From NCBI GenBank assembly GCA_965656375.1, contig CBFHKH010000001.1, positions 79,432 through 130,690 on the forward strand: a DNA stretch of 51,259 bases, read 5' to 3'. Under the pieces are notes generated by a model. That model searched no databases. It worked only from the letters and a program-made list of their open reading frames with translations, and had not been told where the DNA came from. This stretch comes from Minisyncoccia bacterium (GTDB lineage Bacteria > Patescibacteriota > Minisyncoccia > Phycocordibacterales > UBA9973). Each line of letters opens with the position of its first letter. The stretch's first letter is position 1. Shown in pieces: positions 28,649-50,084 of the stretch. Made by a program: the position numbers and the translations under genes.

Positions 28649-28734
28649 GTATTTGATTGGATAAAGACATTTTGCTAATCCTGCAAATTCCCCTCCCTTA
28701 CACCACATCATACAGATGGCTACAATGTAGCTAT

Positions 28735-30783: not shown

Positions 30784-33700
30784 ATGATGTCTCTTTCACA
30801 TGCTGAATACTACACGTATCAATACTATACGTGGGAATACCGGGGACGGGGTTGGTTTGTGGCAGAGCAGCCGGTATGTCTGGAACCTCCCTATATTCCT
30901 TTTTTCAGGCATGGATATACTCCTCAACATGTTGATGATGGCAAGCGACATACACTTGTAAGCAGGTTCATCGAGTACATTAAGGGCAAGAAACAGGAAC
31001 AACCTGGTGAACAAAAGGTATTAGATTATGAAGAACTGGAGCCTTTTGGTGTTGAAAAGGAAACTGGTTTAAAGGCGGTACAGGTAAAACTACCTAGAGA
31101 AAGGAAAATAACTCCAGAGAAGATGAAAGCATTGCTTGTGATGCTTTCGCAATCAGGTACAACCATTTCATTTGAAATAATCGGCACCGCAAAAGAGATT
31201 GTTCTACAATTTGTGTGCAGCGCTGCAGATATCACTATTACAAAAACATACCTGGAGGCATACTTCCCTGAGTATACACATATATCCAGTGATGAACTAC
31301 TTGAAAATATCATAGTTGAGAATAAGCAAACAGCCGTTATTGATTTTGGGTTGCAACAGGAGTTTGTCAGACCAATTCAAGTGGTAAAGAATTTTACTAT
31401 TGATCCGCTGACTGGACTATTTGGAATACTTGATCAACTTCATGGTGATGAACAGGCGGGAATACAAATACTTTTTCAGGGAACAGTAAACCACTGGAGT
31501 GAAAGCATTGTTCGCAGTGTTACGATGTCTGATGGTAGCTCATTCTTTAATGACGATCCCAATGCGCCAAAGGTTGCACTGGAGAAGATACAAAGCACAC
31601 TATTTGGTGTTACTATCCGGGCCTTCACACATGCAGATACACAAGCAGATTCATTCGGGATAGTGCAAAAGCTGAGTTATGCAATTATGAATGCTTCGGT
31701 AAGCACAATCAATCAATTAATACCGCTCTCATCCGAAGACTATGATTTTGAAACAAGGGTACGTGATATCTGTCTGCGTGAATCACACCGCTTGGGTATG
31801 CTGTTGAATGCAGATGAACTTACAACCCTGCTTCACTTCCCATCCGAGAGTATCAGCTCCAAAAAATTATTCGCTTCCATGCGAAAGACCAAGGAGGTAC
31901 CAGGCATAGCCAAAGGAAAGGCGTTTGTACTGGGAGAAAATTATCACAACGGTATAACAGGCAAAGTAACGTTTGGTATTGAGGACAGATTAAAGCATAC
32001 CCATATCATCGGAGCAACCGGCACGGGCAAATCAACCCTCATTGCAAACCTAATCACCCAGGATATTGAACAGGGTCATGGTATTGTACTCTTTGATCCA
32101 CACGGGGACCTGGTAGATGATGTTATTGCATCAATACCCGAGAAACGGATACAAGATGTGGTGCTGGTTGATCCGTCAGATACAGCATATTCAGTAGGGT
32201 TAAATATCCTTGAGGCCCATAGTGATGTCGAGAAGGAAGTACTTTCATCAGACCTGGTTGCTGCATTCAGGAAATATTCCACTTCCTGGGGCGACCAGAT
32301 GAATGCCGTTTTTGGTAATGCGATACTTGCAGTACTTGAAAATACAGAAGGAGGAACACTCAATGACATCCGGAGGTTCTTGATTGAAAAAGACTTCAGG
32401 CAAAAGTATCTTAAGAATGTAACCGACCCTTCGGTGATATATTACTGGCAGAAAGAGTATCCACTGATTAAAACAAATTCTATTGGCCCAATACTTACCA
32501 GGCTAAATACATTCCTGCGACCCCGTGCCATTCGCAATATGGTCATTCAGCATAAAGGGCTTGATTTTGAAACCCTGCTCAATACGAAAAAGATTGTTTT
32601 GCTTAAACTCTCACAGGGATTGATTGGTACTGAAAACAGTTTTTTGTTGGGTTCGTTAGTGCTTTCCAAAATTCACCAGGCCATATTCAGACGACAGCAA
32701 CAGGCCATTCGCAACCCGATCTTTCTGTACCTCGATGAGTTTCAGAACTTCATTACCCCATCTATCAAGGAAATGCTAAGTGGCATCAGGAAGTATAATG
32801 TCGGACTTACTTTATCCCACCAGGATTTACAGCAACTGCAACGGGAAGATGGAGAATTGTTAAACAGTGTCCTCGGCAACATCAATACCAGGATTGTGTT
32901 TCGAGTAGGTGAACCTGATGCAAAAAAACTTCAGGATGGCTTTACGGGCTTTGACTTTACAGATCTCCAGAATTTAAGCAGGGGAGAAGCTGTCATACGC
33001 ATAGAACAGCCACAGTATGATTGTTCGCTGGATACATTTGCGCTCAGGGAAGTATCAGGTGAACAGCGGAAGAGCAATATAGAATCCGTAACCGCCTTTT
33101 CACGGAAAGAGTATGCAAGTCCGAGGGAAGAAGTTGAAAAAATGCTTTTTGAAACCCTTGATCTTGAAATTCAACCAACAGAGAAGAATGATACCCCACT
33201 GCATGAAGTAAAAGAAAAGAAGCAAAAGGATGAGAAGCTTGTACCAGTTGTAACTGACACAGATAAGCCTGTAGCAACAGAGAAAAAATCTGAACCAACA
33301 AAAGAGGTAAAGGAAGGAAAAGACATAACCACTCACCGCTATTTGCAGACATTGGTAAAGAAGATGGCAGAATCAAGGGGGTATATCGCAGTTCTTGAAA
33401 CACAGGTGCCGGATGGTAGCGGGTTGGTAGATGTGTTACTTACCAAGGAGAACAAAACTACAGCCATTGAAATATGCAGCACTACTGATGCAGACTGGGA
33501 GATGCATAACATACAAAAGTGTATTGATGCAGGCTATGATACCATCATATCTCTCTGTGGTGATATAAAGCAGCTTGAGAAGATCAAAAAGAAATGTCTC
33601 GAATATATTCCTGCAATTACCGGAAAGGAAGTCTATTTCTTTACTCCTGATACACTTTTTGCATTTTTAGATACAGAAACCAAAGCAACAGTTCCCCCAG

Positions 33701-33831
33701 AACAGGTTATTAAAGGCTATCGGGTGAATGTAACCTATGATGCAGTTTCCCTTGAAGATATGCAGCGCAAACGGGCCTCTGTAGCACAAGTGGTGATGAA
33801 TTCGCTCAGAAAAAGAAAGAAGGGAAGTTAA
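30784..33831 (+). CDS. Large VirD4/TraD-like ATPase with an N-terminal extension and a C-terminal PD-(D/E)xK-like domain
   Basis: GATGTGKS, DPHGD, LYLDEFQNF, RKYNVGLTLSHQ; C-terminal HRYLQ...VDVLL...AIEIC. Confidence 0.8.
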   Translation: MMSLSHAEYYTYQYYTWEYRGRGWFVAEQPVCLEPPYIPFFRHGYTPQHVDDGKRHTLVSRFIEYIKGKKQEQPGEQKVLDYEELEPFGVEKETGLKAVQVKLPRERKITPEKMKALLVMLSQSGTTISFEIIGTAKEIVLQFVCSAADITITKTYLEAYFPEYTHISSDELLENIIVENKQTAVIDFGLQQEFVRPIQVVKNFTIDPLTGLFGILDQLHGDEQAGIQILFQGTVNHWSESIVRSVTMSDGSSFFNDDPNAPKVALEKIQSTLFGVTIRAFTHADTQADSFGIVQKLSYAIMNASVSTINQLIPLSSEDYDFETRVRDICLRESHRLGMLLNADELTTLLHFPSESISSKKLFASMRKTKEVPGIAKGKAFVLGENYHNGITGKVTFGIEDRLKHTHIIGATGTGKSTLIANLITQDIEQGHGIVLFDPHGDLVDDVIASIPEKRIQDVVLVDPSDTAYSVGLNILEAHSDVEKEVLSSDLVAAFRKYSTSWGDQMNAVFGNAILAVLENTEGGTLNDIRRFLIEKDFRQKYLKNVTDPSVIYYWQKEYPLIKTNSIGPILTRLNTFLRPRAIRNMVIQHKGLDFETLLNTKKIVLLKLSQGLIGTENSFLLGSLVLSKIHQAIFRRQQQAIRNPIFLYLDEFQNFITPSIKEMLSGIRKYNVGLTLSHQDLQQLQREDGELLNSVLGNINTRIVFRVGEPDAKKLQDGFTGFDFTDLQNLSRGEAVIRIEQPQYDCSLDTFALREVSGEQRKSNIESVTAFSRKEYASPREEVEKMLFETLDLEIQPTEKNDTPLHEVKEKKQKDEKLVPVVTDTDKPVATEKKSEPTKEVKEGKDITTHRYLQTLVKKMAESRGYIAVLETQVPDGSGLVDVLLTKENKTTAIEICSTTDADWEMHNIQKCIDAGYDTIISLCGDIKQLEKIKKKCLEYIPAITGKEVYFFTPDTLFAFLDTETKATVPPEQVIKGYRVNVTYDAVSLEDMQRKRASVAQVVMNSLRKRKKGS

Positions 33832-34173: not shown

Positions 34174-34245
34174 ACTCCCAGTAATGTTTTCATGTAGTTG
34201 AGCTGGTGGTTCTCAATCATATTTAATCACTCAAAACTATCTTTT

Positions 34246-35025
34246 ATGCGAAACAATTTTCTTTACCTGATTATTCTCACCGTATTCCTAGTATCCTGTG
34301 GAAGTTCACGCAATACGACTACTTCTGAACCTCCACTTATGCGTATCCCTGCCAAGTTTGATTTCAGTCCACCGTTTCGGGGAGTGGCAGGCTCAACCGG
34401 TATCACGATTGCCATAGTAAAGCCAACCTATGTAGGCAAGAATGCCGAGTACTATGTACCACCCTTCAATGAAATGGCTGCCAGTATGGGCAATGACTTT
34501 GAAGAACTCTTAACCGCCAAAGGCTTTACTATGAGGGGACCTTTTGGCTCACGGGATGAAATGGTGTATAACGACAAGATAAACTCAAGCTTTATCCTTG
34601 AGATCGGCATCGAACTTACCCCGCAATATAACCGGAAGTATGCCACTAGCACCAAAACAAACTGGGGCTCTATTCTTGACAAAAATGCTCCGGCAACTAT
34701 ATCAACACAGAGGATGAGTGGGGAAATAACCATTGCGGGGAATCTGGTCATCAATGCTAAATCCTCTCAGTACGGAGAACTGATATGGAAGAAGAACATT
34801 TCCCTTGAAGCCACTTCATTCACCTATGCAGGATCTCTCACCTGGGACGGTGTGCCAACGATGGCTGAAGAACTGAAGAAGGATAACCAGGTGTATAATA
34901 CACTTTCTTCTGAACTAGAGAAGTTCTATCAAAAAGCCTTAAGCCTTGCCTGGCAGCAGATTGACCCTGCTGAAATGAAGTCTGTGGCAGAACAGGCAAA
35001 GAAAGCAGACAAGAAAGGAAATTGA
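34246..35025 (+). CDS. Lipoprotein of unknown function (start moved to ATG 34246)
   Basis: MRNNFLYLIILTVFLVSC lipobox. Confidence 0.75.
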   Translation: MRNNFLYLIILTVFLVSCGSSRNTTTSEPPLMRIPAKFDFSPPFRGVAGSTGITIAIVKPTYVGKNAEYYVPPFNEMAASMGNDFEELLTAKGFTMRGPFGSRDEMVYNDKINSSFILEIGIELTPQYNRKYATSTKTNWGSILDKNAPATISTQRMSGEITIAGNLVINAKSSQYGELIWKKNISLEATSFTYAGSLTWDGVPTMAEELKKDNQVYNTLSSELEKFYQKALSLAWQQIDPAEMKSVAEQAKKADKKGN

Positions 35026-35368: not shown

Positions 35369-36817
35369 ATGAGTCGTACCCGACTCTTCATAACAACCCT
35401 GATCATGCTTGCTGCGCAATGCTGCACAGCACAGACTGACAGCGTATTAAAAAGCCTGGAGAACCTCCAGAAAGTCCCCGTTAAATATTTAGATGCTGTT
35501 GAGAACAAGATAGATAAATACAGCAACCGCATAACCGGCAAAACCGAAAAAACACTTGCCAAGTTGAGCAAGTGGGAGAATAAAATCAAAAGCATTTTAG
35601 ACCAGGTTAGTCCTGAAACTTCCGACAAACTATTTGGCAATAATGCCACCACTTTTACCAGTCTGCTTAAAAAACTGCAGGAGGGTAAAGCTATTGCAGA
35701 AGGGTACAAAACAAAATACAACGAGTACCGCGATAAACTAACAACCAGTGTAAAATACCTGGAAGATCAGAAAGACAAGCTGGATAAAAAGTTTGTGCAA
35801 CCCATCAGCAATACCAAAAAGAAACTGGAGGAACTGGAAAAGGATGTAAACAATACCGAAGCAGTGGAAGCTTTTATCAAAGAACGAAAAAAGCAACTGG
35901 TTGATGAAGCTTTCAAGTATTTGGGAAAAAGCAAGTACCTGACTAAGATAGACAAGGAGGCTTACTATTATGTGGAAACACTGCGTAACTACAAAGAGTT
36001 GTTCAACGACAAAAAGAAAGCTGAAGAGCTGGCGCTGAAACTGCTGAATAAAATCCCGGCTTTTACTGAGTTTGCCCAAAAGAACAGTATGCTGGCGCAG
36101 TTATTCGGCTCGCCATCGGGTGGGGGTAATATGGCAAACCTGGCCGGGCTGCAAACCCGTGCAGGTGTCAATGCTTTGATACAGAACCGGCTGGCAGCGG
36201 GTGGCCCCAGCGCCCGGGAAGCTTTCAGCCAGAACATGCAGCAGGCACAAGCCGAACTTACCCAATTAAAAGACAAGATCATGAAAGTCGGTGGCAGCAG
36301 CAGCGAAGCCAATATACCCAGCTTTAAACCCAACGAACAGAGATCAAAAACCTTTTTACAGCGGCTTGAGTTTGGCAGCAATTTTCAGTTTGCCAAAAAC
36401 AACAGCCTGGTGCCCACCACTGCTGACATTGCACTGAGTGTTGGGTACAAACTGAATGATAAATCAATCATTGGTATTGGTGCCAGTTATAAAATGGGAC
36501 TGGGCAGCATACAGCGCATCAGCATCAGCCACCAGGGCATCGGGCTCAGAAGTTTTATAGACTGGAAACTGAAGAAACAGTTTTTTGTAACCGGCGGGTT
36601 TGAGATGAATTACAATGCCCGGTTCAAAAATATAGATCAGCTGCAGAATTATAGCGACTGGCAGCAAAGCGGGTTAGTGGGACTGACCAAGAAATTAAAC
36701 ATCAAAACAAAATTCTTTAAAGGCACCAGTGTACAGTTATTGTACGATATGCTGTACCGGCAACACAACCCGGTTAGTCAGCCGGTGCTGTTTAGGATGG
36801 GTTATAGTTTTAAATAA
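35369..36817 (+). CDS. Exported protein: coiled-coil N-terminal half, probable outer-membrane beta-barrel-like C-terminal part
   Basis: Signal peptide ending CTA|Q, long K/E/L helical region, amphipathic beta-strand pattern, ends LFRMGYSFK. Confidence 0.6.
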   Translation: MSRTRLFITTLIMLAAQCCTAQTDSVLKSLENLQKVPVKYLDAVENKIDKYSNRITGKTEKTLAKLSKWENKIKSILDQVSPETSDKLFGNNATTFTSLLKKLQEGKAIAEGYKTKYNEYRDKLTTSVKYLEDQKDKLDKKFVQPISNTKKKLEELEKDVNNTEAVEAFIKERKKQLVDEAFKYLGKSKYLTKIDKEAYYYVETLRNYKELFNDKKKAEELALKLLNKIPAFTEFAQKNSMLAQLFGSPSGGGNMANLAGLQTRAGVNALIQNRLAAGGPSAREAFSQNMQQAQAELTQLKDKIMKVGGSSSEANIPSFKPNEQRSKTFLQRLEFGSNFQFAKNNSLVPTTADIALSVGYKLNDKSIIGIGASYKMGLGSIQRISISHQGIGLRSFIDWKLKKQFFVTGGFEMNYNARFKNIDQLQNYSDWQQSGLVGLTKKLNIKTKFFKGTSVQLLYDMLYRQHNPVSQPVLFRMGYSFK

Positions 36818-36836
36818 GTAATTCAATAATAATCTT

Positions 36837-39800
36837 ATGGTAAAAATGTTGTTTAGAAAATGTGTAGTTCTTGCAGTTTTTATTGCTGCAACATCGAAGT
36901 TACATGCACAGGCACAGGAAAATAATCCAATCAGTAAGATCACGATTGCGTCCCCAACGGCTGCATCACTTGGAAAATATGCTGATATACCTGTCAATTA
37001 TCATACTGGCATCCCCAAAGTTGATATACCTATTTATACAGTCTCTGCGGGACCATTATCATTGCCAATAAGCCTGAGTTATCATGCAGGGGGACTTAAA
37101 GTCCAAGAACCTGCAAGCTGGGTTGGAGCTGGCTGGGCATTGAATGCGGGAGGCGTGATAACCAGGAGCGTTATGGGCTCTCCTGATGAAAAGGGTACAA
37201 ATAACGGCGGGATCGAATTTAACGGTCATTTTAGCGATTATGGATATAATAATTATATCTGGAATCCGACATTGGGAGGGGGTAATTTCACAGGTGGTGA
37301 AGATTGGAAATTTGTTGCAGAAGGAAGACTGGATGGAGAGCCGGATCTTTTCTTTTTTAATTTTGGAGAATATAGCGGTAAATTTTATTTCCGGGACGAC
37401 AGGACGCCTGTTATCGTACCCGAGGCCGATTTTAAAATTGAACCTTATTATAATCCGCAGGGCAATATAAAAAGCATTCAAAGTTTTATAATAACCACTC
37501 CTGATGGGGTTAAATACTATTTTGGACAAACACCAGGTTTAACAGGTGTGGTGCCCATAGAAATTACCAATCCGGCAACACCCAACAATGGCGTTTCATC
37601 AGCTAATGTATATTCTAGCTGGTACTTAAATAAAATTACCACCGCTGATGAGCAGTTTTCTATTACACTCACCTATGCCACGGAAGACTACGGGTATCAT
37701 ACAGTTTCAATGTTCCCTATTGATGGTTCAGAACCGGCAGGAGGATACCCCACTTTTGGCGCAGCTCATGGGTATGACCTGGTAAAAAATATGGTTCATG
37801 GGGTAAGACTTAGCCAAATATCATTTCCTAACGGAACTGTTATTTTTTCAACCGATGGTATGTCTGCAAGATCAGATCTTAGTGATACAAATCCCTATTA
37901 TAATGCAGATGGATTAAATCAAAACGCAAAACCACTTGGAGCAATTGTGATCACGGATGGTACAAATCCTGTAAAGAAGTTTAATTTTTCATACGGATAT
38001 TTTGAAGATAATACAACACCCATACCACAGGATATAGCCAATTTTGCTCCTAATTTATTCACTGATAAAAAGCGATTGAGGCTTGACCAGGTCCAGGAAA
38101 TATCCGGTGATAATTCATTAAACAAACCACCCTATAGTTTTACTTATTTTAGTGAGCAGGTTCCCCGTCGGTTGAGTTTTAGCATCGATCATTGGGGTTT
38201 TAATAACGGGGTCACTAATAATACAGGATTAATACCCTCCTACCTTGAAACTACATTTAGCCATACAACCTCTCACCCCGGTGCCGACAGGGACTCTTAC
38301 TGGCCGGCAATGAGAGCAGGAAGTTTGCAGCAAATAAATTATCCTACCGGGGGATTCTCTCTTTTTGAGTTCGAAGCTAATACTGTTTATAATACCAACA
38401 CATCTAATGTTAATGTGCCATTGAGTAATCTAACTGTACATCTTTATGGCCAGAATACGTATACAAACAGCTCCGTATTTACAAGCAATGGGGCTTTTAT
38501 GAATCTTTCTGTAAACAACGGCACCAATTATCCTGCAGTATTTACCATCACAGATAACACTAATACCATTATTCATACCCAGAGTGTTCCGGAATATCAG
38601 AATTTCAGTGGTACCGTACCAATGTATCCGCAGGGAACTTATACTGCTAGGCTTACAATAAATAACAACTCTACAGGTGGTGCCCAATCTTCATTATCGC
38701 AATGGCAAACTGTTACAACAATCAATGACGTAATTGTTGGTGGCAACAGAATAAAAAAAATAACACATAATGACGGAGTTACAACAAATAACATGATCAC
38801 TAATTATGATTACAATGCTGATAATAATCATTCAAGCGCTATTTTATTCAGCAGGCCCGCTTATGTAGGTATTTTAAGAAATGATTTTATCAGGGATGTT
38901 GGCCTCCTGGATCCTTACTACGGTTACCAACCCACTTATGGAACTTATGGTTGTGCATATTGCAACTTGGATGGGGTGTGTTATTTCAAGTCGACTAACA
39001 GCATACGCCCGATGGCAACAACACAAGGTAATCCTTTAGGCTATTCACAGGTAAAAGTGTCACAAACAGGCAATGGCTATAGTATTTATAAATACTACGG
39101 TCCTACAAATGTTCAACCCTGGCAGGTTAATAACGGCGATATAGCTGTACGTACTGTAAACAGGCAAAATTGTGATAATAATTCTCAAAGTTATCCCTTT
39201 GCCCCATTGCCATATGATTTTCTGCGTGGCGAATTAAAGTATGAAGCACGCTTTAATGAGGCCAGTCAAATGCTTCAGGAAAAAATATATACGCCGGTTT
39301 ATGTAAACAATCCCATAAAGACACCGGGGCTGATTGCAACATCTACCGGAGCAGGTACTATCTTATCTACCAAATATGAATTAACCACAGCCCGTAAAAC
39401 ACAATCACAAGTAATTGAAACAAATTATGACCCGGCAACCAATACATCTTTAACAACAACCAGTACCTCGTACTTTGAAAGTCCGTTTCATAATAATGCT
39501 ACCCGAACTTCTGCTACAAACTCGAAAAATGAAGTATTGGAAACAAAGATGAAGTATGCTTTTGACTTCAGGATATCAAACTGTGAAAGTATTAGTGATG
39601 GATATGCACAATACAATACCGATTGTGCCACATGCCTTGCCAATAAAAATGCAGCCACTACAGCTTGTGGCAGTAATAATATTTGCCGAACCAATGCATA
39701 TCTCACTTATATGCATTGCCTGAACACTGCTAGGTCAAACTGGGTTGCTTACAGGCGTACAAATTTTACCGATCCGGTAAATACTTTTAAAACAAATCAT

Positions 39801-41006
39801 GATAATGCGAAAACAGGAGCAGATGCTGAATTAAAACCCATTTTGCAGCTCCAGGATGATTATTCAAACAACGCAATTGAAACTTCGAAATGGAAAAACG
39901 GCAATTTACTTGGCTCTACCTTCAGCAGGTTTGATTACAGTTCAAATCCGGCTGGTAAAGTATATATAAATAAGGTACAGACAATTAACCTGGGTGCTGC
40001 TTCTTCCACTTTCACTATTTCAAATACTAATGGAAGCAATAATGGTTTAATTAAAGACAACCGTTACCAAGATGAATCTTTTGCTAAATTCTACAATGGT
40101 AACCTGGCTGAGCTAACCTCCAGGGATGGCATAACCACTGCCTACATTTGGGGCTATAACAATACCTTGCCGATTGTAAAATCAATTGGAGTAAGCCATA
40201 GTACTTTATTATCAGCTTATAACGCAGTTGGAGGCAATCTTTCTCAACTTCGAAGCCAGCCTTCTATAAGCGGCGCCCAGTTAAATACGTATGTGTATAC
40301 ACCAATAACCGGAATGACTGCTGAAACAGATGTGAATGGAAAGAGTATGACCTATGAATATGATGCATTGCAAAGATTGCTACTGATCAGGGACTTTAAT
40401 AATAATATCATTAAGCAGTATGAGTACAAATACCAGGTTATGCCTCCGTCCGGCGCAGCTCAATGGATTGCCACCGGAGCCACCCGCTGTAAACCATGCC
40501 CGCAAAACAACAATTACATCAGCAATATTTTGCAGCAGGAGGAAAAGGATAACAATCCTCAAAGTGCCAGCTATAATACGCTACGCTGGACAGATATTGG
40601 TATTAGCAATGTTTGTGTATCAGTTGCAGATTGGCAAAATTCTTCTTTGGCTATACGTTGCCGGGTGTCGGATATTTCCGGCCAAAATACAGGCGAACAG
40701 GAACAGCAACAAATAGATATGAACCCATGCAGCAGTACCTACGGTCAGACAAGGTGGGTTGTGGTAGGTATTAATTACAGCATTTGCCCGCTTCCTGCAG
40801 GTTGCAGCAGCACAAACTGCACCGGGGTAGATAAAAAGTGTATTAACAATAATTGTGAAACAGGATCCAAAGTATATACAGGATCATACTTTGACAAAAA
40901 GACCGGGCAGTGGATGTGTATTTATCATTACCACTGGAGCGATGGAAGCAATAGTGTCGATTATTACGAACCTTCAACCGGGCAATGTATGTCAGGCGGA
41001 CTCTAA
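36837..41006 (+). CDS. Exported YD/RHS-repeat protein with an SpvB/TcB-like N-terminus and a Cys-rich C-terminal extension
   Basis: Signal peptide ending LHA|Q; TGIPKVDIPIY...LSLSYH...WVGAGWAL; YD-like repeats such as YEYDALQRL; no DPxG core motif seen. Confidence 0.8.
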   Translation: MVKMLFRKCVVLAVFIAATSKLHAQAQENNPISKITIASPTAASLGKYADIPVNYHTGIPKVDIPIYTVSAGPLSLPISLSYHAGGLKVQEPASWVGAGWALNAGGVITRSVMGSPDEKGTNNGGIEFNGHFSDYGYNNYIWNPTLGGGNFTGGEDWKFVAEGRLDGEPDLFFFNFGEYSGKFYFRDDRTPVIVPEADFKIEPYYNPQGNIKSIQSFIITTPDGVKYYFGQTPGLTGVVPIEITNPATPNNGVSSANVYSSWYLNKITTADEQFSITLTYATEDYGYHTVSMFPIDGSEPAGGYPTFGAAHGYDLVKNMVHGVRLSQISFPNGTVIFSTDGMSARSDLSDTNPYYNADGLNQNAKPLGAIVITDGTNPVKKFNFSYGYFEDNTTPIPQDIANFAPNLFTDKKRLRLDQVQEISGDNSLNKPPYSFTYFSEQVPRRLSFSIDHWGFNNGVTNNTGLIPSYLETTFSHTTSHPGADRDSYWPAMRAGSLQQINYPTGGFSLFEFEANTVYNTNTSNVNVPLSNLTVHLYGQNTYTNSSVFTSNGAFMNLSVNNGTNYPAVFTITDNTNTIIHTQSVPEYQNFSGTVPMYPQGTYTARLTINNNSTGGAQSSLSQWQTVTTINDVIVGGNRIKKITHNDGVTTNNMITNYDYNADNNHSSAILFSRPAYVGILRNDFIRDVGLLDPYYGYQPTYGTYGCAYCNLDGVCYFKSTNSIRPMATTQGNPLGYSQVKVSQTGNGYSIYKYYGPTNVQPWQVNNGDIAVRTVNRQNCDNNSQSYPFAPLPYDFLRGELKYEARFNEASQMLQEKIYTPVYVNNPIKTPGLIATSTGAGTILSTKYELTTARKTQSQVIETNYDPATNTSLTTTSTSYFESPFHNNATRTSATNSKNEVLETKMKYAFDFRISNCESISDGYAQYNTDCATCLANKNAATTACGSNNICRTNAYLTYMHCLNTARSNWVAYRRTNFTDPVNTFKTNHDNAKTGADAELKPILQLQDDYSNNAIETSKWKNGNLLGSTFSRFDYSSNPAGKVYINKVQTINLGAASSTFTISNTNGSNNGLIKDNRYQDESFAKFYNGNLAELTSRDGITTAYIWGYNNTLPIVKSIGVSHSTLLSAYNAVGGNLSQLRSQPSISGAQLNTYVYTPITGMTAETDVNGKSMTYEYDALQRLLLIRDFNNNIIKQYEYKYQVMPPSGAAQWIATGATRCKPCPQNNNYISNILQQEEKDNNPQSASYNTLRWTDIGISNVCVSVADWQNSSLAIRCRVSDISGQNTGEQEQQQIDMNPCSSTYGQTRWVVVGINYSICPLPAGCSSTNCTGVDKKCINNNCETGSKVYTGSYFDKKTGQWMCIYHYHWSDGSNSVDYYEPSTGQCMSGGL

Positions 41007-41017
41007 AAATATTAACA

Positions 41018-41545
41018 ATGAAATTATTAGCAACCTTATTATTGATTACGGGAGGTTTCCTTCCTTCCAGTATTTATACAAAGCAATTTACCAACCTGGA
41101 GGGCACCAATATAAGCCTGGCGCAATATCAGGGTAAAAGAATTTTACTGGTAAATGTTGCCTCGCAAAGCGAATATGCCGCTGAGCAGTTGCCGCAACTG
41201 GAACAATTGTACCAGCAACATAAAGACAGCCTAGTGGTAATCGCATTCTCGTCAAATGACTTTGGTAATGAACCACGCACTGATGCAGAGATTAAATTGT
41301 TGATGCAGTACAGTTATGATGTTCATTTTCCGGTATCAGTAAAGTGTACAGTTAATGACGGCGTTGCAAACACCCATCCTGTTTATGTCTGGCTTCAAAA
41401 TCAAAATGAGAATGGGAGCCTGGGGGTGAAAGTGCAAAAGGATTTTCAAAAATATGTAATAGATAAGGATGGAACACTGATCGGCGTTTTTGGAGCTAAG
41501 ACAAAGCCAATGGACAGTGCGATCATTAAAACCATCACACAATAA
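41018..41545 (+). CDS. Glutathione-peroxidase-like (thioredoxin-fold) exported protein lacking the peroxidatic Cys
   Basis: YQGKRILLVNVASQSEY, AFSSNDFG.EP, HPVYVWL and FQKYVIDKDG align by eye with GPx motifs. Confidence 0.8.
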   Translation: MKLLATLLLITGGFLPSSIYTKQFTNLEGTNISLAQYQGKRILLVNVASQSEYAAEQLPQLEQLYQQHKDSLVVIAFSSNDFGNEPRTDAEIKLLMQYSYDVHFPVSVKCTVNDGVANTHPVYVWLQNQNENGSLGVKVQKDFQKYVIDKDGTLIGVFGAKTKPMDSAIIKTITQ

Positions 41546-41572
41546 TATTCATACCTACTAATTGTAATAAAT

Positions 41573-44500
41573 ATGGCTTCGAGAAAACTCTATACCCTGC
41601 TGCTTCTATCCATGGTATTTGGCTCTTATGCAATGGCTCAAACACCAGCGCCATACCAGCCCAATGTTAAAATAAATTATATCAGGGAATGGTCTCCCAC
41701 AGCACCTATAACAGATGCCACACAGGTGCCAATACGTGTAGTTGAAGAGGTAAAAACTTCAACAGCCTACGTTGACGGCTTGGGAAGGCCCTTACAGAGT
41801 ATCAGTAAACAGGCCTCGCCGTTAAAAAAAGATTTAGTGAGTGCGGTTGTATATGATGAATTGGGAAGAGAAACATATAAGCACCTCCCTTTTGTTTCTT
41901 CCAACACAACCGGAGGTTCTGAAATTACTGATAATGGTTCTTTTAAATTGAATCCTTTTCAGCAGCAACAGATATTTATGACAGCGCAGTATGGCAGCCA
42001 AGGTGAAACCTATTTTTATAGCCAGACCGATTATGAAGCGTCACCTTTAAACAGACCAGTAAAGAGTTTTGCGCCGGGTAACAGCTGGGTGGGCAGCAGG
42101 GGAACCGGAAATGAAAAATCTGTGCAGCAGCAATATAGCTTTAATAGTGTGAATGATGAGGTAAAGGTATTTACTATTTCTGCTGCACAAGGGAGCTTTC
42201 CAACCAGCAATTCGGATTATGGTCCGGGTCAATTGTTTAAGAATACGGCAATAGATGAACGTGGTAATAAGGTGGTGGAATTTAAAGACAAAGAAGGTAA
42301 GATAATATTAAAAAAAGTTCAGGCAGCAAATTCTGTAGCAGACGGACATGACGGTTGGCTTTGTACCTACTATATTTATGATGAGTTTGGACAGCTTCGC
42401 TTTGTATTGCCTCCAAAAGCTACAGAGGCATATATTAATAATGCATCCATTAGCAGTCTAGCAGATGAACTCTGCTACAGGTATGAATACGATGTCCGTC
42501 ACAGAATGATTATCAAAAAGTTGCCCGGTTCAGCAGAGATTTGGCTGGTATATGATTCCAGGGACAGGCTGGTGATGATGCAGGATGGTAATTTACGAAG
42601 CAGTAGTAAATGGGTTGTTACGGTATATGATATATTGAACAGACCGATACAAACTGGATTATTAACAGATGCTAATACAACATTTGCCACACACCAGAAT
42701 AATGCAGCTGGGTCAGCCAATTACCCACCAACAAGCGGATTTGAACTGTTGGGCGAAAATTATTACGATGATTATAGCTGGGTGGCTGCAAGCGGTACAT
42801 CGCTAACTGCAACAGTTGATGCAGCCAATTTTAACAACAACGATTATTTTATCACCAGTTATAATGCAGCACCGGCTTATGCATTGCCACTTGCAGCAAA
42901 TTATAATATTAAAGGGTTACCAACGGGAATCAAATTAAAAGTATTGGGTACAACAAATCAGTTTATTTACTCTGTTTTGTTTTATGATGAGAAAGGAAGA
43001 GCTATACAATCACAAGTAATCAATATAAGCGGGGGCAAAGATATTACCACTACGCAATATGATTTTAGCGGTAAGCCTTTGAGAAGTTTGATTCAACATA
43101 ATAAGGGTGGTAACAATCCTCAAAGCCATACGATAATAACGAAATTGGAATACGACCATTTGGGTAGAATTACTTATGTACGTAAAAAAATTACATCGGT
43201 AGTAAATAATCAGAATATAACCACACCGGAAAGAACTCTTATACAGAATAATTATGATGAATTGGGTCAGCTTAAAGCAAAAAAAATTGGTAACAAACCA
43301 GGCAGCGTTGAAGAGCTGGAAGCTCTTAATTATGATTATAATATACATGGCTGGCTGCTGGGTGTTAACAGGAATTATATAAATGCGGCATCAGCAGATG
43401 GAAACTATTTTGGTTTTGAATTAGGTTATGATAAACAGGCTGCTGCAGTAACTGGCACTAATTATACTAACCCCCAATTTAACGGTAATATCAGCGGCAG
43501 TACCTGGAAAAGCAAGGGGGATAATGAAAGGCGTAAATACGATTTTACTTATGATAATGTGAACCGGCTTTTACGGGCGGATTTCTCGCAGTACACAGGA
43601 GGCAGTTTTAATACCAGTGCTGGTGTGGATTTTACGCTTATAATGGGTATTAACGGCCAGGATTATACCAGTGCCTACGATGCCAACGGAAACATAAAAA
43701 AAATGCAACAGTGGGGGCTGAAAATAAATGCCAGTGCACAGATTGATGATCTTGATTACAGCTATTACGACAATAGTAATAAACTTAAAAATGTACGGGA
43801 TGCGCTGAATGATGCAACAAGCAAACTGGGCGATTTTAAAACCTCCGGATTTCACCCGCAGAATTCATCAAAAGCAGCGGCTACGACACAAACACTAAGG
43901 GATGCCATAACTGACTATACTTATGACGCCAACGGAAATTTAAAAAGGGATTACAACAAGGATATTGGTGATGCTGGTACCGATGGTATGCTGTATAATT
44001 TTTTAAATCTGCCCTCTGTAATTACTGTAAAAAAAGATGCAACGGTAAATAATAACAAAGGTACAATCACTTATACCTATGATGCCAGCGGGGCAAAACT
44101 CAAAAAGGAAACACAGGAATTAAACAGTACTGTAGCATATAATGGAACAAACTATATCAGTAATATTATAACGGTTACCACTTATATTGCCGGGTTTGTT
44201 TACCAATCCAAAAATTACAGCAATACAGCCTTGGCTTCATTAAATGAGGATGAAATATTACAGTTTACCGGGCAGGAAGAAGGAAGGATACGGTTTATAC
44301 CTGCAACCGGCAACAAGCCTGCAGATTTTGCCTACGATTATTTTATAAAGGACCACCTGGGTAATACACGCATGGTGCTTACAGACGAAATGCAGCAGGA
44401 TATTTACCCTGCAGCCTCTCTAGAACCGGCATTGGTGAATACTGAAAGTGCATTCTATACCATTGACCAAGGTCGCATTGAATCAAAGACAGCCATTATA

Positions 44501-46093
44501 GGGATGAATAATATCAATTATCCCAATAATAATGGTATACTTAATAATAATCCAGACTGTGGTAGCGGCACTTTGTGTACTACCGATAACAGCACCAAAC
44601 TATACCGCCTTAAAAGCAATGAGGTTCAAACCGGTTTGGGAATTACCTTAAAAGTAATGGCTGGCGACAGGCTGGATGTGTTTGGAAAAAGCTTTTATAA
44701 CCAGAACAATCCTGGAAGTGGATATAGTAATACTTTACCGATACTTGACCTGCTGGCAGGATTTTTAAACAGTTCCGGGGGTATTGTATCTCAAAGCAAG
44801 GGAGCAGTAACACCCGCACAGATAAATACAACACAGGGTACACAGGGCATCAATAGTATGACGCTTCAGCAAACCAATCAGCATAGTAATTATCCCCTTA
44901 GACCACTTGCTTTCATTAACGTAATATTCTTTGACGAACAGCTAAAAGCGGTTGATTATAAAGTTAGTATGGTGGGCGATAACGGTGTTTTGAAAGATCA
45001 TTATACAGAGTTGCAAAATCTAACAGTTCCAAAGAATGGATTTGTGTATATTTACTGTAGTAATGAAACTCAGGTAAATGTGTTCTTTGACAATATTCAG
45101 GTTGTACATACAAGAGGGCCTATTCTTGAAGAAACACATTATTATCCATTCGGTTTGATAATGACTGGAATAAGTACCACTGCAAGTAATAAACTGGAAA
45201 ATAAAAATAAATTTAATAGGGGCACAGAATTAAATACTGATTTTTCACTTAATATATATGAAACGGATTTTAGAAATTATGATGCACAAATAGGGAAATT
45301 TTTCCAAATAGATCCACTTGCAGATGCCATTGATTTTCAAAGCCCATATTCTTTTGCGGATAACAACCCAGTATCATTAAATGACCCATTAGGACTTGAG
45401 GCTGAGGAGGCAGATTCCGATAAGGGTAAAAAGGGAAAGAAGCAATCTAAGGAATCTTCTTCCAATCAACACACTCCCAAAAAAGTAGTAGTGCCTGGCA
45501 AAACTGTTGCCAGAGTTACACCGGTTTCGCCAACACCGGTGCCTCTTCCTCCTGTGCCCCCACCTAGCGTAACACCTACACCGGTTGAGCCACCAATTCC
45601 AACTCCAACTACACCACCAATTCCTGAGGTGAATCCGCTGCCAGAACCGACACCTGTTCCAGCTCCTCTTTTACTCCCTGCTGTATTTACTGCGATTCTC
45701 GTCGGGATACCAATTTCTACTGGAACCGAAATTACTCCACAAGAAAAAGAAAAATTTTGGTGGGATAAAACGAGATATGATCCTTATCCGGGACATGGAA
45801 ATAAAAAAGAAAATCGGAATAATCATATTGTTTATTGTTTTACTTTTACTCCGATTGATGGATTGACGCCTGTACTAAAATATGGTATTTCTGATGAATT
45901 TAGGTATAGCTTAGATAGACCTGAAAGACAATTATATGGCCTACAATTGAAATATGGATGGAGCGTTAAATTAACAATTTTGATGCGTGCGCCTAATAGA
46001 GAGTTAGCTCTGTTATATGAACAGCAGCTCGTAATTAATCATCAATTAGCTTGGAAAGGAGCGAATCCTAGAGCACAGTTTAGGCCATTTTAG
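41573..46093 (+). CDS. Exported RHS repeat-associated-core polymorphic toxin (DUF6443-like N-terminus)
   Basis: Signal peptide ending AMA|Q, YVDGLGRPLQ, YFIKDHLGNTR, ETHYYPFG, RNYDAQIGKFFQIDP, NNPVSLNDPLG, then a variable tip. Confidence 0.9.
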   Translation: MASRKLYTLLLLSMVFGSYAMAQTPAPYQPNVKINYIREWSPTAPITDATQVPIRVVEEVKTSTAYVDGLGRPLQSISKQASPLKKDLVSAVVYDELGRETYKHLPFVSSNTTGGSEITDNGSFKLNPFQQQQIFMTAQYGSQGETYFYSQTDYEASPLNRPVKSFAPGNSWVGSRGTGNEKSVQQQYSFNSVNDEVKVFTISAAQGSFPTSNSDYGPGQLFKNTAIDERGNKVVEFKDKEGKIILKKVQAANSVADGHDGWLCTYYIYDEFGQLRFVLPPKATEAYINNASISSLADELCYRYEYDVRHRMIIKKLPGSAEIWLVYDSRDRLVMMQDGNLRSSSKWVVTVYDILNRPIQTGLLTDANTTFATHQNNAAGSANYPPTSGFELLGENYYDDYSWVAASGTSLTATVDAANFNNNDYFITSYNAAPAYALPLAANYNIKGLPTGIKLKVLGTTNQFIYSVLFYDEKGRAIQSQVINISGGKDITTTQYDFSGKPLRSLIQHNKGGNNPQSHTIITKLEYDHLGRITYVRKKITSVVNNQNITTPERTLIQNNYDELGQLKAKKIGNKPGSVEELEALNYDYNIHGWLLGVNRNYINAASADGNYFGFELGYDKQAAAVTGTNYTNPQFNGNISGSTWKSKGDNERRKYDFTYDNVNRLLRADFSQYTGGSFNTSAGVDFTLIMGINGQDYTSAYDANGNIKKMQQWGLKINASAQIDDLDYSYYDNSNKLKNVRDALNDATSKLGDFKTSGFHPQNSSKAAATTQTLRDAITDYTYDANGNLKRDYNKDIGDAGTDGMLYNFLNLPSVITVKKDATVNNNKGTITYTYDASGAKLKKETQELNSTVAYNGTNYISNIITVTTYIAGFVYQSKNYSNTALASLNEDEILQFTGQEEGRIRFIPATGNKPADFAYDYFIKDHLGNTRMVLTDEMQQDIYPAASLEPALVNTESAFYTIDQGRIESKTAIIGMNNINYPNNNGILNNNPDCGSGTLCTTDNSTKLYRLKSNEVQTGLGITLKVMAGDRLDVFGKSFYNQNNPGSGYSNTLPILDLLAGFLNSSGGIVSQSKGAVTPAQINTTQGTQGINSMTLQQTNQHSNYPLRPLAFINVIFFDEQLKAVDYKVSMVGDNGVLKDHYTELQNLTVPKNGFVYIYCSNETQVNVFFDNIQVVHTRGPILEETHYYPFGLIMTGISTTASNKLENKNKFNRGTELNTDFSLNIYETDFRNYDAQIGKFFQIDPLADAIDFQSPYSFADNNPVSLNDPLGLEAEEADSDKGKKGKKQSKESSSNQHTPKKVVVPGKTVARVTPVSPTPVPLPPVPPPSVTPTPVEPPIPTPTTPPIPEVNPLPEPTPVPAPLLLPAVFTAILVGIPISTGTEITPQEKEKFWWDKTRYDPYPGHGNKKENRNNHIVYCFTFTPIDGLTPVLKYGISDEFRYSLDRPERQLYGLQLKYGWSVKLTILMRAPNRELALLYEQQLVINHQLAWKGANPRAQFRPF

Positions 46094-46110
46094 AATTTTA
46101 ATTCAATAAT

Positions 46111-46944
46111 ATGAAAACACAGCTCAAATTAAATTCAGTAGTTCCTCATGGAGTCGGTAGTAGTTCAGAATCAGGAGCTATTGATTTTATATATAGTTAT
46201 CTTCTTTCCGCTTACCAGCAAGATTCTTATAGATTCATTTCAATTAACCAAATTGGTAGTGAGTTGAATGAATTTGTATTAGAAGAAAATGGAAAGCATG
46301 TTCATGTAAATATTCGCTACCCAGTATATGAAGATTTTGAAAACAAATCTGATTTTGAAAAAAACCTAATAAGACTTGAGATTATTCATTCTGCATTATT
46401 AAGAATAGCAAATGAATATAGTAAATTGAATGTCCAAAGACTAATTGAAATAAAGGAAAATATACTACTTAACAAATTCTCTTTTGATATAGAATATAAA
46501 ACACATATAAACATTAAAAAACCTAATCTTATTGCTAAAATTGTAGTCAATCCAGAAATAAATAAATTTAATTTTTTTTGTGTTATTGAAGATAAAGGAA
46601 AAGTATTGTGTAAAATCAAAATTTACTCTGGGTTAACAAACATGTATTATTTCAGAGATTTTTTCTCTATTGTGAAATGGAATTCAGATGACGAAATAAT
46701 AATTACAGGCAAAGCAAAAGAAGTAAAGATTTCTATTTTAATAAATAACTGTGAAATAAATTTTACTAACTTAACTAGGTATGAAAAACCACCGTATTTT
46801 GAGATGATGAAATCAGATGTTTCTGCAAAAGAAAGAGGGACCGCATATAATAATTGGTTGAACTCACAACCTTCAGAAATTTCAAGAGTAATTAAAGAAA
46901 ATAATGATACTTCATTCTACCCAGATTCAGCTTCCGAATCTTGA
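46111..46944 (+). CDS. Putative cognate immunity protein
   Basis: Starts 17 nt after the toxin stop and is AT-rich like the toxin tip; no recognisable family. Confidence 0.65.
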   Translation: MKTQLKLNSVVPHGVGSSSESGAIDFIYSYLLSAYQQDSYRFISINQIGSELNEFVLEENGKHVHVNIRYPVYEDFENKSDFEKNLIRLEIIHSALLRIANEYSKLNVQRLIEIKENILLNKFSFDIEYKTHINIKKPNLIAKIVVNPEINKFNFFCVIEDKGKVLCKIKIYSGLTNMYYFRDFFSIVKWNSDDEIIITGKAKEVKISILINNCEINFTNLTRYEKPPYFEMMKSDVSAKERGTAYNNWLNSQPSEISRVIKENNDTSFYPDSASES

Positions 46945-48140: not shown

Positions 48141-50084
48141 ATGAATTGCCCAAAACTGCAAGAAAATATCAGGTTAAATATAGACAACCTAATTGTAAGT
48201 TTAAAGAACCATCAATTGGATGATGGTGGTTTTAGGGGGTATCACCTGTTTGATAAAAAAAGCGGTATCTGGTCAACCTGCGAAATAGTTCATGTTCTTT
48301 CAAAAGTACAACCAAGCTTGGTAGAAAAAGAATGGCTACAAAATGCAGCTAAATATGTCGCCTTAAATCAAAATAAAGATGGCGGTTGGGGTTTTAGAGT
48401 AAAGGGTAAATCAATTATTGATGTTACGGCTTGGGCATGCCTTGCATTGAGCCATTTCAATTACCATGAAGAACTATTGAAAGGGGTGTCTTTTTTGCTA
48501 AATACCAAGGTTAATTTAACCGAAGAAGATAAAGGTGGCTGGGGTCTAACTAATTATGAACCAGACAGAATATACTCTACATGGATTGCTGCAAACTGCT
48601 TAACAAAATTGTCAAGTCAATTAAAAAATTTATTCGATAGCAAGCAGCTTGATGATATTTATACTGTTATCCGAGAATCACAAAAATGGTTAGTCAGTTC
48701 AAAGAATGCAGATGGCGGCTGGGGTTCTTTGGGAGATGAAACTTCAACATTAACAAGTACAGCAATAACCCTCATAAGTATTTTCAGCAATGGCGAGGAT
48801 CCGGCAAATTATCGTGAATCTTTTTCTTTTATTAAAGAACGGGCTTTAGACAATCTGTGGGAATTAGAGCGTGAAATTGTTATCACACAAGAAGGGTATG
48901 AATTAACACAGGAATGGTTTACCTCTGTTTACTGTTTTAGGGCTTATATATTTTTTGCAGAGTTAGGGATTTGTTCACTTCAGGAACTGCACTCCACATA
49001 TCTTTCATTGGTAAAGTTAATTCAAAATGGAAAAGTGAAGCCGACAAATGAAGGTTCTTTAGATTTAATCTGGACAATTCCATTTATGATTGAGGCATTA
49101 GATAAATTCCATCACTTTACGATTATAAAAAGAAAAGAGTATGACGATTTTCTATATCAGAAAGATATAGAGGAAAAAAAGCAAAAGAAAAATGAAATGG
49201 AAGGGTATTTAAAAAATCTTTTTCCATTCCCTATCAGCCAGGTTTATTTTTCATTTAGCCATGAGCTTGATCACCACAGGAGGTTTCAATATTTAGTACA
49301 ACTCTATGAAGTGATAATTAAATTTACTGCTATAGTATCATTATCATCAATAATTGCAGCCAATGAGAAAATACCTCAACTGGAAGCACTTGTTAAGAAC
49401 CGCCTTAAAAAACCATCTTTGGGTGACTGGGTAACCATTATTGATATGCTTTTCAATTTTTCCACTAAAGTCTTCAATATTACTTATCCTTGGGAGAAAG
49501 AAGAACTATTAAAACGGCAGGCAGGCTTTATAGATAATGAAAGCCCAAGACTTAATTTAAACCAGGTGTTGTCAGAAATTGTATCACTAAGAAATAACTG
49601 GACAGGGCATGGCGCAGTACGGTCAGTGTATGAATATAAAATGGAAATTGATAAACAGGTTCCTATCCTTTTTTCGCTATTAAACCGATTGATGTTTTTG
49701 GCAAAGTGTAATTCATTCTTGATACTTGCCTCTGAGTATAATGAGTTTGGTGACGGAGATTTGTACAAAATTAGGGTATTCAATGGCCTTGATATACTTG
49801 ATAATGATCTTGAAGTTCAAAAAAGACTATCTGAGGGGCATAAAGACCAATTGATAAGGTACGTTTACTTTCACAATATGGAGAGCAATACAATCATCAA
49901 TTTATACCCATTTCTTTCCTATATGGTATGCCCTAATTGCAAAAAAGAAAGATTTTTCTTTTTCAATGGAATAAAAACAAGCGATAAGTCAACCTATTTA
50001 TCATTTGAATGCGGTCATACAATTGAATATGACAATATGAATCATTTTGAAAAAAGGTTTTCGGCGATTGGTATTCAATTTTAA
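48141..50084 (+). CDS. Prenyltransferase/squalene-cyclase-like (QW-repeat) domain fused to a C-terminal HEPN-like domain
   Basis: QLDDGGF, QNKDGGWG, KGGWG and NADGGWG repeats; C-terminal FPFPI...KPSLGDW...LRNNWTGHG. Confidence 0.65.
   Translation: MNCPKLQENIRLNIDNLIVSLKNHQLDDGGFRGYHLFDKKSGIWSTCEIVHVLSKVQPSLVEKEWLQNAAKYVALNQNKDGGWGFRVKGKSIIDVTAWACLALSHFNYHEELLKGVSFLLNTKVNLTEEDKGGWGLTNYEPDRIYSTWIAANCLTKLSSQLKNLFDSKQLDDIYTVIRESQKWLVSSKNADGGWGSLGDETSTLTSTAITLISIFSNGEDPANYRESFSFIKERALDNLWELEREIVITQEGYELTQEWFTSVYCFRAYIFFAELGICSLQELHSTYLSLVKLIQNGKVKPTNEGSLDLIWTIPFMIEALDKFHHFTIIKRKEYDDFLYQKDIEEKKQKKNEMEGYLKNLFPFPISQVYFSFSHELDHHRRFQYLVQLYEVIIKFTAIVSLSSIIAANEKIPQLEALVKNRLKKPSLGDWVTIIDMLFNFSTKVFNITYPWEKEELLKRQAGFIDNESPRLNLNQVLSEIVSLRNNWTGHGAVRSVYEYKMEIDKQVPILFSLLNRLMFLAKCNSFLILASEYNEFGDGDLYKIRVFNGLDILDNDLEVQKRLSEGHKDQLIRYVYFHNMESNTIINLYPFLSYMVCPNCKKERFFFFNGIKTSDKSTYLSFECGHTIEYDNMNHFEKRFSAIGIQF

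Follow-up and report, generated by a model that had tools for sequence, protein, structure and literature searches.

A redox-dead glutathione peroxidase homologue as an optional accessory of a predicted Sec-dependent Rhs toxin cassette

Organization of the locus

The window, i.e. the whole stretch of 51,259 nucleotides analysed here, carries a run of four genes on the forward strand, followed directly by a small open reading frame (ORF). The run is headed by a gene (35369–36817, + strand) for a 482-aa protein with a signal peptide, in which a helical/coiled-coil region of about 280 aa (approximately residues 25–306) precedes a C-terminal eight-stranded β-barrel (residues 333–481). Its AF2 model (pLDDT 74, based on a 39-sequence alignment) gave the transmembrane barrels of OmpA, OprF and OmpX as best Foldseek matches, and the gene is conserved in 58 metagenome loci, where it again comes first in the cassette. 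Judging from the modelled barrel, the protein is probably an outer-membrane anchor or pore partner.

The second gene (36837–41006, + strand) encodes an exported YD-repeat protein of 1389 aa, which has a signal peptide and matches the Pfam family RHS_repeat (E 0.001). Its N-terminus appears SpvB-like by eye, although the Pfam support for this is marginal (E 0.014 in two of six homologues, and no match for the window protein itself). The C-terminal approximately 210 aa are rich in Cys (12 residues). The motif of this module, C.NG.CETG.K followed by W...Y.Y.WSDGS and a further Cys, is common to distant cassettes (40374–41003 in the window, 9400–9987 in L082, and also L120), and the module is recognized by Pfam as DUF5977 in some relatives, though not in the YD protein of the window. 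The 1389-aa protein was also considered as a paralogue of the 1506-aa protein encoded further downstream, but this was rejected, as BLASTP gave stray YD-type matches only.

The third gene (41018–41545, + strand), which is the main subject of this work, encodes a 175-aa protein with the fold of a glutathione peroxidase (GPx), predicted to be Sec-exported and redox-dead. A gap of 11 nt separates its ORF from the stop codon of the upstream 1389-aa gene, and 27 nt lie between its end and the first codon of the 1506-aa gene, all three being on the same strand. The initial annotation had reported this tight spacing correctly, but had described both neighbours as RHS genes, which does not hold for the 1389-aa YD-repeat protein, since it has no Rhs core.

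The fourth gene (41573–46093, + strand) encodes the Rhs toxin itself, a protein of 1506 aa comprising a signal peptide, DUF6443 (Pfam, E 4.9e-43), RHS repeats, an Rhs-associated core (TIGR03696, residues 1190–1275, E 2.8e-10, 40.5 bits compared to a cut-off of 32.5) and a variable C-terminus from approximately residue 1280. The combination of RHS repeats, Rhs core and variable C-terminus is that of a polymorphic toxin. Alignments to every homologue end at residues 1274–1304, so that the toxic tips vary from one cassette to another whereas the GPx-like protein stays conserved. The tip in the window gave a weak match to Tox-URI2, below the cut-off (E 0.012). Directly downstream of the toxin gene lies an ORF of 277 aa (46111–46944, + strand), which is a candidate for the immunity gene by position only; it gave no family match in Pfam or NCBIfam and is not conserved in related loci.

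Searches of PDB sequences with the 1389-aa, 1506-aa and 482-aa proteins, both direct and with profiles, yielded no usable match, the profile of the 1389-aa protein retrieving only Tre23, an Rhs protein, as a weak match. A scan for sigma-70 promoters and terminators was uninformative, as it returned fewer promoter-like sites than shuffled sequences did and as Bacteroidota promoters differ from the sigma-70 type. All four cassette products are predicted from their signal peptides to be exported by Sec, and the cassette resembles an Rhs/YD toxin that depends on Sec and has a small outer-membrane partner of its own.

A GPx fold devoid of redox residues

The 175-aa protein matched the Pfam family GSHPx (PF00255) over profile positions 1–108 of 108, with an E-value of 6.5e-21 and a score of 74 bits compared to a cut-off of 27, which places it in the GPx family by homology. 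Sequences of solved GPx structures were likewise found to match it in sequence searches. The AF2 model, built from an alignment of 43 relatives, reached a pLDDT of 91.5, and its best matches in a Foldseek search of the PDB were plant GPx5, human GPX4 and GPX7, with a TM score of approximately 0.8 (2p5q, 2obi and 2p31). Against two NCBIfam equivalog models of glutathione peroxidase, on the other hand, it scored far below the cut-offs (NF007900, 79.2 compared to 270 bits; TIGR02540, 67.2 compared to 207.3 bits).

In GPx enzymes, a Cys or selenocysteine (Sec, U) attacks the peroxide, and this residue is activated by Gln, Trp and Asn. The peroxidatic residue of the NxAS-x-C/U-G motif is absent from the protein studied here, in which the corresponding stretch reads NVASQSE, with Ser51 (codon AGC, 41168–41170) followed by Glu52. 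Asp81 stands where the catalytic Gln is expected, in the motif FSSNDF, and Lys141 and Asp142 form a KDF motif in place of WNF. The resolving Cys has also been lost, with Met96 occupying a site that is an invariant Cys in canonical relatives. Taken together, S51, D81, M96, K141 and D142 replace C, Q/N, C, W and N, respectively, while the sole Cys of the protein, Cys110, lies at a position without conservation. The initial annotation had proposed a catalytically dead GPx homologue on the basis of the Ser codon, the FSSNDF and KDF motifs and the off-site Cys; all of these were present as described, and the loss extends to all five redox determinants. The protein is most likely unable to act as a thiol peroxidase, as its sequence indicates, while the fold has been kept.

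The N-terminus, MKLLATLLLITGGFLPSS, is hydrophobic, was modelled with low pLDDT and leads directly into the first GPx strand (SIYT). This hydrophobic and poorly modelled stretch comprises the first 17 residues, and the nearest Cys-bearing relatives possess the same type of N-terminus. Sequence and model together fit a Sec signal peptide, in agreement with the signal-like N-terminus noted at the outset, and would place the mature protein in the periplasm.

Origin and extent of the redox-dead clade

A word-indexed search retrieved 115 relatives, of which the closest 78 (37–74% identity) all lacked the Cys, while the next group, consisting of Segetibacter sequences and others, carried the canonical NTASKCG and WNF motifs. 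Residues were compared between 84 Cys-less and 94 canonical sequences. In the canonical set C51, G52, C96, W141 and N142 were invariant. In the Cys-less set, Ser51 was present in 92% and Asp142 in 93% of the sequences, positions 52, 96 and 141 were variable, and Gln38 and Gln63 had become newly fixed relative to canonical GPx. In a maximum-likelihood tree, the Cys-less sequences formed one side of a single branch (SH-aLRT 100), corresponding to a single state change. Highly diverged GPx-like proteins found at the same place in other cassettes (described below) also fell on the Cys-less side (support 99), and one recruitment therefore explains all GPx-like proteins at this position.

When 1.84 billion representatives were searched exhaustively with a profile, 108 of the best 148 new representatives (clustered at 50% identity) lacked the Cys, from which the redox-dead clade is estimated to contain at least 108 clusters at that level of identity. 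Position 51 across the representatives was mostly Ser, with Gly, Asp, Ala, Thr, Asn, His, Ile and Leu also occurring. At 4 of 44 highly conserved positions the window copy deviates from the consensus, which is within the spread of the family (median 2, 75th percentile 4). As far as can be judged from these alignments, the loss of the Cys is old, conserved and under selection for something besides peroxidase chemistry, since it is a clade-wide trait of single origin and the window copy lies within the normal range. Simple decay of one allele, with a Cys loss unique to this copy, was considered in the initial annotation as the outcome that would overturn it; the clade-wide loss and the normal-range conservation of the window copy rule this out.

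A second group of Cys-less GPx proteins was represented by a pair of sequences (P0219 and P0258) that keep the Trp, group near the canonical sequences and stand alone, outside any Rhs context. The Cys has therefore been lost at least twice, and its loss is not exclusive to Rhs cassettes. Loci of this type (L148, 8001–8537; L149, 8001–8543) encode AIWD and IQWD at the key positions, and in one of the two the Cys-less GPx gene lies beside genes for a di-haem cytochrome c peroxidase and a cytochrome c.

Linkage of the clade to the Rhs cassette

In species-representative genomes, GPx genes were found at 80 loci. Seven of these were Cys-less, all from Chitinophagaceae (L001–L005, L012 and L018; L001 is from the culturable Ferruginibacter sp. 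SUN106), and six of the seven, the exception being L012, share the four-gene run of the window, with proteins of approximately 480 aa, 1200–1400 aa, a GPx-like protein and a DUF6443-RHS protein of approximately 1450–1550 aa. In L012, the GPx-like gene is accompanied by the Rhs gene only, and there is no YD gene. Divergent members of the clade were found in the same cassette (L081–L085, L150 and L151), and a variant gene order was seen in L144 and L145, where the GPx-like gene follows the barrel gene and precedes the large YD gene. A short contig (L146) held the GPx-like gene and the large upstream protein only. All relatives of the cassette belong to Chitinophagaceae.

Overall, cassette genes adjoined the clade member in 26 of 26 loci examined, compared to none of the 73 Cys-bearing GPx loci in the species-representative genomes. 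The expectation voiced earlier, that RHS-adjacent GPx homologues lack the Cys and stand-alone ones keep it, is thus largely borne out, the stand-alone P0219/P0258 pair being the one exception. Both the redox-dead GPx family and its strict linkage to a toxin cassette appear to be undescribed in the literature searched.

A variable slot between the YD and Rhs genes

Metagenome contigs were scanned with a profile of the 482-aa protein, so that the sample was not chosen on the presence of GPx, and 27 cassettes with a visible junction between the YD and Rhs genes were obtained. A close Cys-less GPx-like protein occupied the junction in five of these (L086, L087, L090, L108 and L116), and another five contained a strongly diverged GPx-like protein, termed slot-B, with approximately 27% identity and the old active site erased (L088, L089, L091, L092 and L137). 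Six cassettes carried an unrelated helical protein of 111–136 aa with a signal peptide at this place (L101, L105, L126, L129, L132 and L139), and one carried another ORF, of 143 aa (L119). In the last ten, the slot was empty and the two large genes lay 7–84 nt apart (L098, L106, L107, L114, L120, L123, L125, L127, L135 and L140). The slot was thus filled by a GPx-like protein in 10/27 cassettes, by a helical protein in 6/27, by the other ORF in 1/27 and by nothing in 10/27, which makes it a variable slot of which the GPx-like gene is one optional occupant.

The helical slot proteins (L101, 6320–6655; L105, 15827–16165; L126, 7503–7835; L129, 5729–6127; L132, 5850–6242; L139, 4451–4786) display an LTxxQ-like motif by eye, e.g. 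LSLTEQQKDSI, for which the Pfam family LTXXQ gave a non-significant E-value of 0.059 in one of the six. A PDB profile search with these proteins returned nothing relevant. On the basis of the motif, they may be Spy/CpxP-like.

Two of the slot-B cassettes (L088 and L089) are located on a single 4.26-Mb contig of chromosome size, Ga0307515_10000001. Their 482-aa proteins are 65–68% identical to that of the window, compared to 26–33% for the YD proteins and 27% for the slot proteins. A further contig of the same sample (Ga0307515_10000010, L087) encodes a slot protein of the close type, with 61% identity. In these three loci, the cassette parts appear to recombine as modules.

Association with a Cys-rich tail

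Slot occupancy was compared with the number of Cys residues among the C-terminal 250 aa of the YD protein. This tail contained 7–16 Cys in cassettes with a GPx-like protein (n = 20), 6–14 in those with a helical protein (n = 6) and 0–8 in those with an empty slot (n = 10), with a Mann–Whitney p-value of 2e-5, uncorrected for shared descent. Expressed as a threshold, at least seven tail Cys were present in 25 of 26 cassettes with an occupied slot compared to 2 of 10 with an empty one (Fisher p 1.3e-5, likewise uncorrected for phylogeny). At least four of the YD proteins from empty-slot cassettes (L106, L123, L125 and L127) end right after the last YD repeat, and the exception in the other direction was L120, which combines a Cys-rich tail with an empty slot.

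The Cys-rich C-terminal module of the YD protein is most likely the client of the GPx-like protein, with the Rhs toxin as an alternative. The YD gene is missing from the L012 locus, however, which speaks against the Cys-rich tail being the sole client. A mirror-tree analysis of the close-type cassettes, in which the divergence of the GPx-like protein was correlated with that of each partner, gave Spearman coefficients of 0.74 for the Rhs shell, 0.68 for the barrel protein and approximately 0.37 for the YD protein, and singled out no cassette protein as the partner.

Host and genomic surroundings

The alanine racemase encoded at 20576–21706 has its best named relatives in Patescibacteria/Paceibacterota (67–78% identity), and the housekeeping genes in the left half of the window (alanine racemase, MurB and G6PD) look Patescibacterial. 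This gene and the cassette region (35369–46944) lie on the same 840,184-bp contig, and the cassette genes are intact. From these affinities, the cassette appears to lie in Chitinophagaceae-type DNA on a Patescibacterial-looking contig. Patescibacteria, or candidate-phyla-radiation (CPR) bacteria, are generally held to lack an outer membrane, and a barrel-dependent cassette may therefore not function in this host. A toxin cassette that depends on an outer-membrane barrel is odd in a CPR genome.

In several unrelated contigs, a TrwB/VirD4/HerA-like ATPase of approximately 430–460 aa is encoded a few kb ahead of the cassette (28657–30039 and 30784–33831 in the window; L005, L086, L100, L117, L123, L141 and L150), often together with a homologue of the 275-aa protein encoded at 34198–35025. 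This recurrence would fit a cassette carried by a conjugative-type element or, alternatively, an ATPase that is itself part of the system. Downstream of the cassette, the gene at 48141–50084 encodes a protein of 647 aa with N-terminal α-toroid repeats of the squalene-hopene-cyclase/prenyltransferase type (Pfam, E 5.9e-11), its C-terminal half being unassigned.

Proposed role of the GPx-like protein

Taking these results together, the GPx-like protein is probably a periplasmic, non-catalytic binding accessory of the Rhs cassette, serving as a chaperone, an adaptor or a subunit; we hold this reading with some reserve. It is favoured because the protein is dispensable in many cassettes, can be replaced by an unrelated exported protein and is independent of the type of toxin, and because many residues are tolerated at the position of the old nucleophile, including Gly and His in standard cassettes. 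The initial annotation had suggested a thioredoxin-fold pseudoenzyme repurposed as a chaperone, adaptor or plug. The pseudoenzyme part of this proposal is upheld, and an optional, replaceable, tip-independent and Cys-tail-linked gene is consistent with each of the three roles alike.

In the scenario we envisage, the ancestor would have been a periplasmic two-Cys GPx of Chitinophagaceae-type Bacteroidota, which would have been recruited a single time into a Sec-dependent Rhs/YD toxin cassette and would thereafter have lost both the peroxidatic and the resolving Cys, the Gly following the former, the Trp and the Asn. The cassette comprises five parts, namely the barrel/coiled-coil protein, the YD protein with its Cys-rich tail, the accessory slot, the DUF6443-Rhs protein with its exchangeable tip and the immunity candidate. 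Within it, the GPx-like protein would help to fold, hold or assemble the large exported proteins in the periplasm.

Alternatively, the protein could be no transient chaperone but a stoichiometric structural subunit that leaves the cell with the exported complex, in which it would serve as a cap or plug or would link the YD protein, the Rhs cocoon and the barrel protein to one another. Such a role would agree with the tight linkage to the cassette, within which the gene order can shuffle (L144), and with the divergence of the protein tracking the Rhs shell and the barrel better than the YD protein in close-type cassettes, though these correlations are not independent of shared descent. About a third of the cassettes do without any slot gene, however, and others carry an unrelated protein instead, which would be unusual for a core part, and we therefore regard a structural subunit as rather unlikely.

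Somewhat less probable still is that the protein has become an enzyme or a ligand-binding protein with new chemistry at the old site, where Ser/Asp/Asp could, for instance, accommodate a metal or a lipid, or act on a substrate linked to toxin maturation. The high conservation of Ser51 and Asp142 in the close subfamily, the new fixation of Gln38 and Gln63 and the retention of both fold and pocket would be expected of such a protein. Against this, position 51 also accepts eight other residues in the clade, with the Gly51 and His51 forms residing in normal cassettes, neither a His nor any other general base is conserved, the slot-B relatives have erased the whole site yet hold the slot, and an unrelated helical protein can fill it. 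Ser51 was also considered specifically as a catalytic nucleophile and was rejected, in view of the Gly, His and other variants in normal cassettes and of the slot-B proteins, in which the former active site is not conserved.

A functionless passenger, i.e. a decaying GPx between two large genes, or an immunity-type protein might be suspected from the loss of all catalytic residues and from the adjoining toxin gene, but either is very improbable. The ORFs are intact in well over 100 clusters down to approximately 27% identity, the fold is predicted with high confidence and synteny persists despite module shuffling. An immunity function was rejected because the gene stays conserved while the toxin tips differ; the gene also precedes that of the toxin, which is followed by separate variable ORFs.

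Returning to the non-catalytic accessory, a broader picture can be sketched, which we offer as speculation that may well prove wrong. The slot could be a docking place for system-specific periplasmic chaperones, and the dead GPx a new class of secretion-dedicated pseudoenzymes, whose former thiol-substrate groove would keep hold of the Cys-rich module of the YD protein, which probably binds a receptor, until it is exported. The cassette could then represent an undescribed route for Bacteroidota Rhs toxins, consisting of Sec plus a small barrel, and could have been brought into the Patescibacterial genome by a mobile element.

To our knowledge, bacterial pseudoenzymes derived from peroxidases have rarely been documented. 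The clade described here offers a clean natural case, as it combines a single recruitment with complete redox loss, spans more than 100 clusters and is strictly tied to one toxin cassette. It provides a handle on how the surface of a redox enzyme can turn into one for binding, as well as on the poorly understood folding and export of Sec-exported Rhs/YD toxins of Bacteroidota. The database label 'glutathione peroxidase' is almost certainly wrong for the proteins of this clade, and the annotation is corrected accordingly.

Comparison with known systems

The nearest enzymatic counterparts are the two-Cys, thioredoxin-dependent GPx proteins of PF00255, and among these the signal-peptide-bearing GPx of Segetibacter and other Chitinophagaceae (P0079–P0086) are closest, with 36–38% identity, while BtuE of E. 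coli is more distant. The two groups have in common the fold, the length, the signal peptide and the motifs SIY, GK.LLVN.A, F.E, LxxxY, F.K and G. In contrast to these enzymes, the GPx-like protein possesses neither the peroxidatic Cys and its Gly nor the resolving Cys, the Trp and the Asn, and its gene is part of a toxin cassette instead of standing alone.

Among RHS polymorphic toxins, a TcdB/TcaC-like export class has been defined by a signal peptide and an SpvB domain (Zhang et al. 2012, PMC3482391). The cassette resembles this class in its large signal-peptide-bearing YD/RHS proteins encoded in tandem and in its Rhs core with an exchangeable tip. It differs in its marginal similarity to SpvB and in having, in place of a TcA-sized partner, a small barrel/coiled-coil protein and an accessory slot; neither an ORF of TcA size nor a Pfam match to TcA was found among the cassette genes. 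The survey in PMC3482391 contains no occurrence of a thioredoxin or peroxidase accessory. Literature searches for GPx-fold or thioredoxin-fold accessories of Rhs toxins found none, and those for DUF6443 and for GPx pseudoenzymes returned nothing relevant.

Type VI Rhs toxins are served by effector-associated chaperones and adaptors, namely EagR/DUF1795, DUF4123 and DUF2169. These are likewise encoded by a small gene beside rhs that is conserved with the delivery part and independent of the tip. Their folds are unrelated to that of GPx, however, no type VI genes accompany the cassette, and the GPx-like protein is predicted to be exported by Sec and would thus act outside the cytoplasm. The likeness lies in the proposed mode of working only.

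Finally, GPx7 and GPx8 hand oxidising equivalents to protein disulfide isomerase, and together with redox-inactive thioredoxin-fold binders they illustrate how the fold can be used for protein contact in an oxidising export compartment, a setting to which the association with a Cys-rich client would correspond here. The structures 2p31, 3cyn and 3kij were among the fold matches of the GPx-like model. While GPx7 and GPx8 are enzymes that have retained the peroxidatic Cys, the redox-dead clade has none, and any role in the handling of disulfides would therefore be exerted through binding only.
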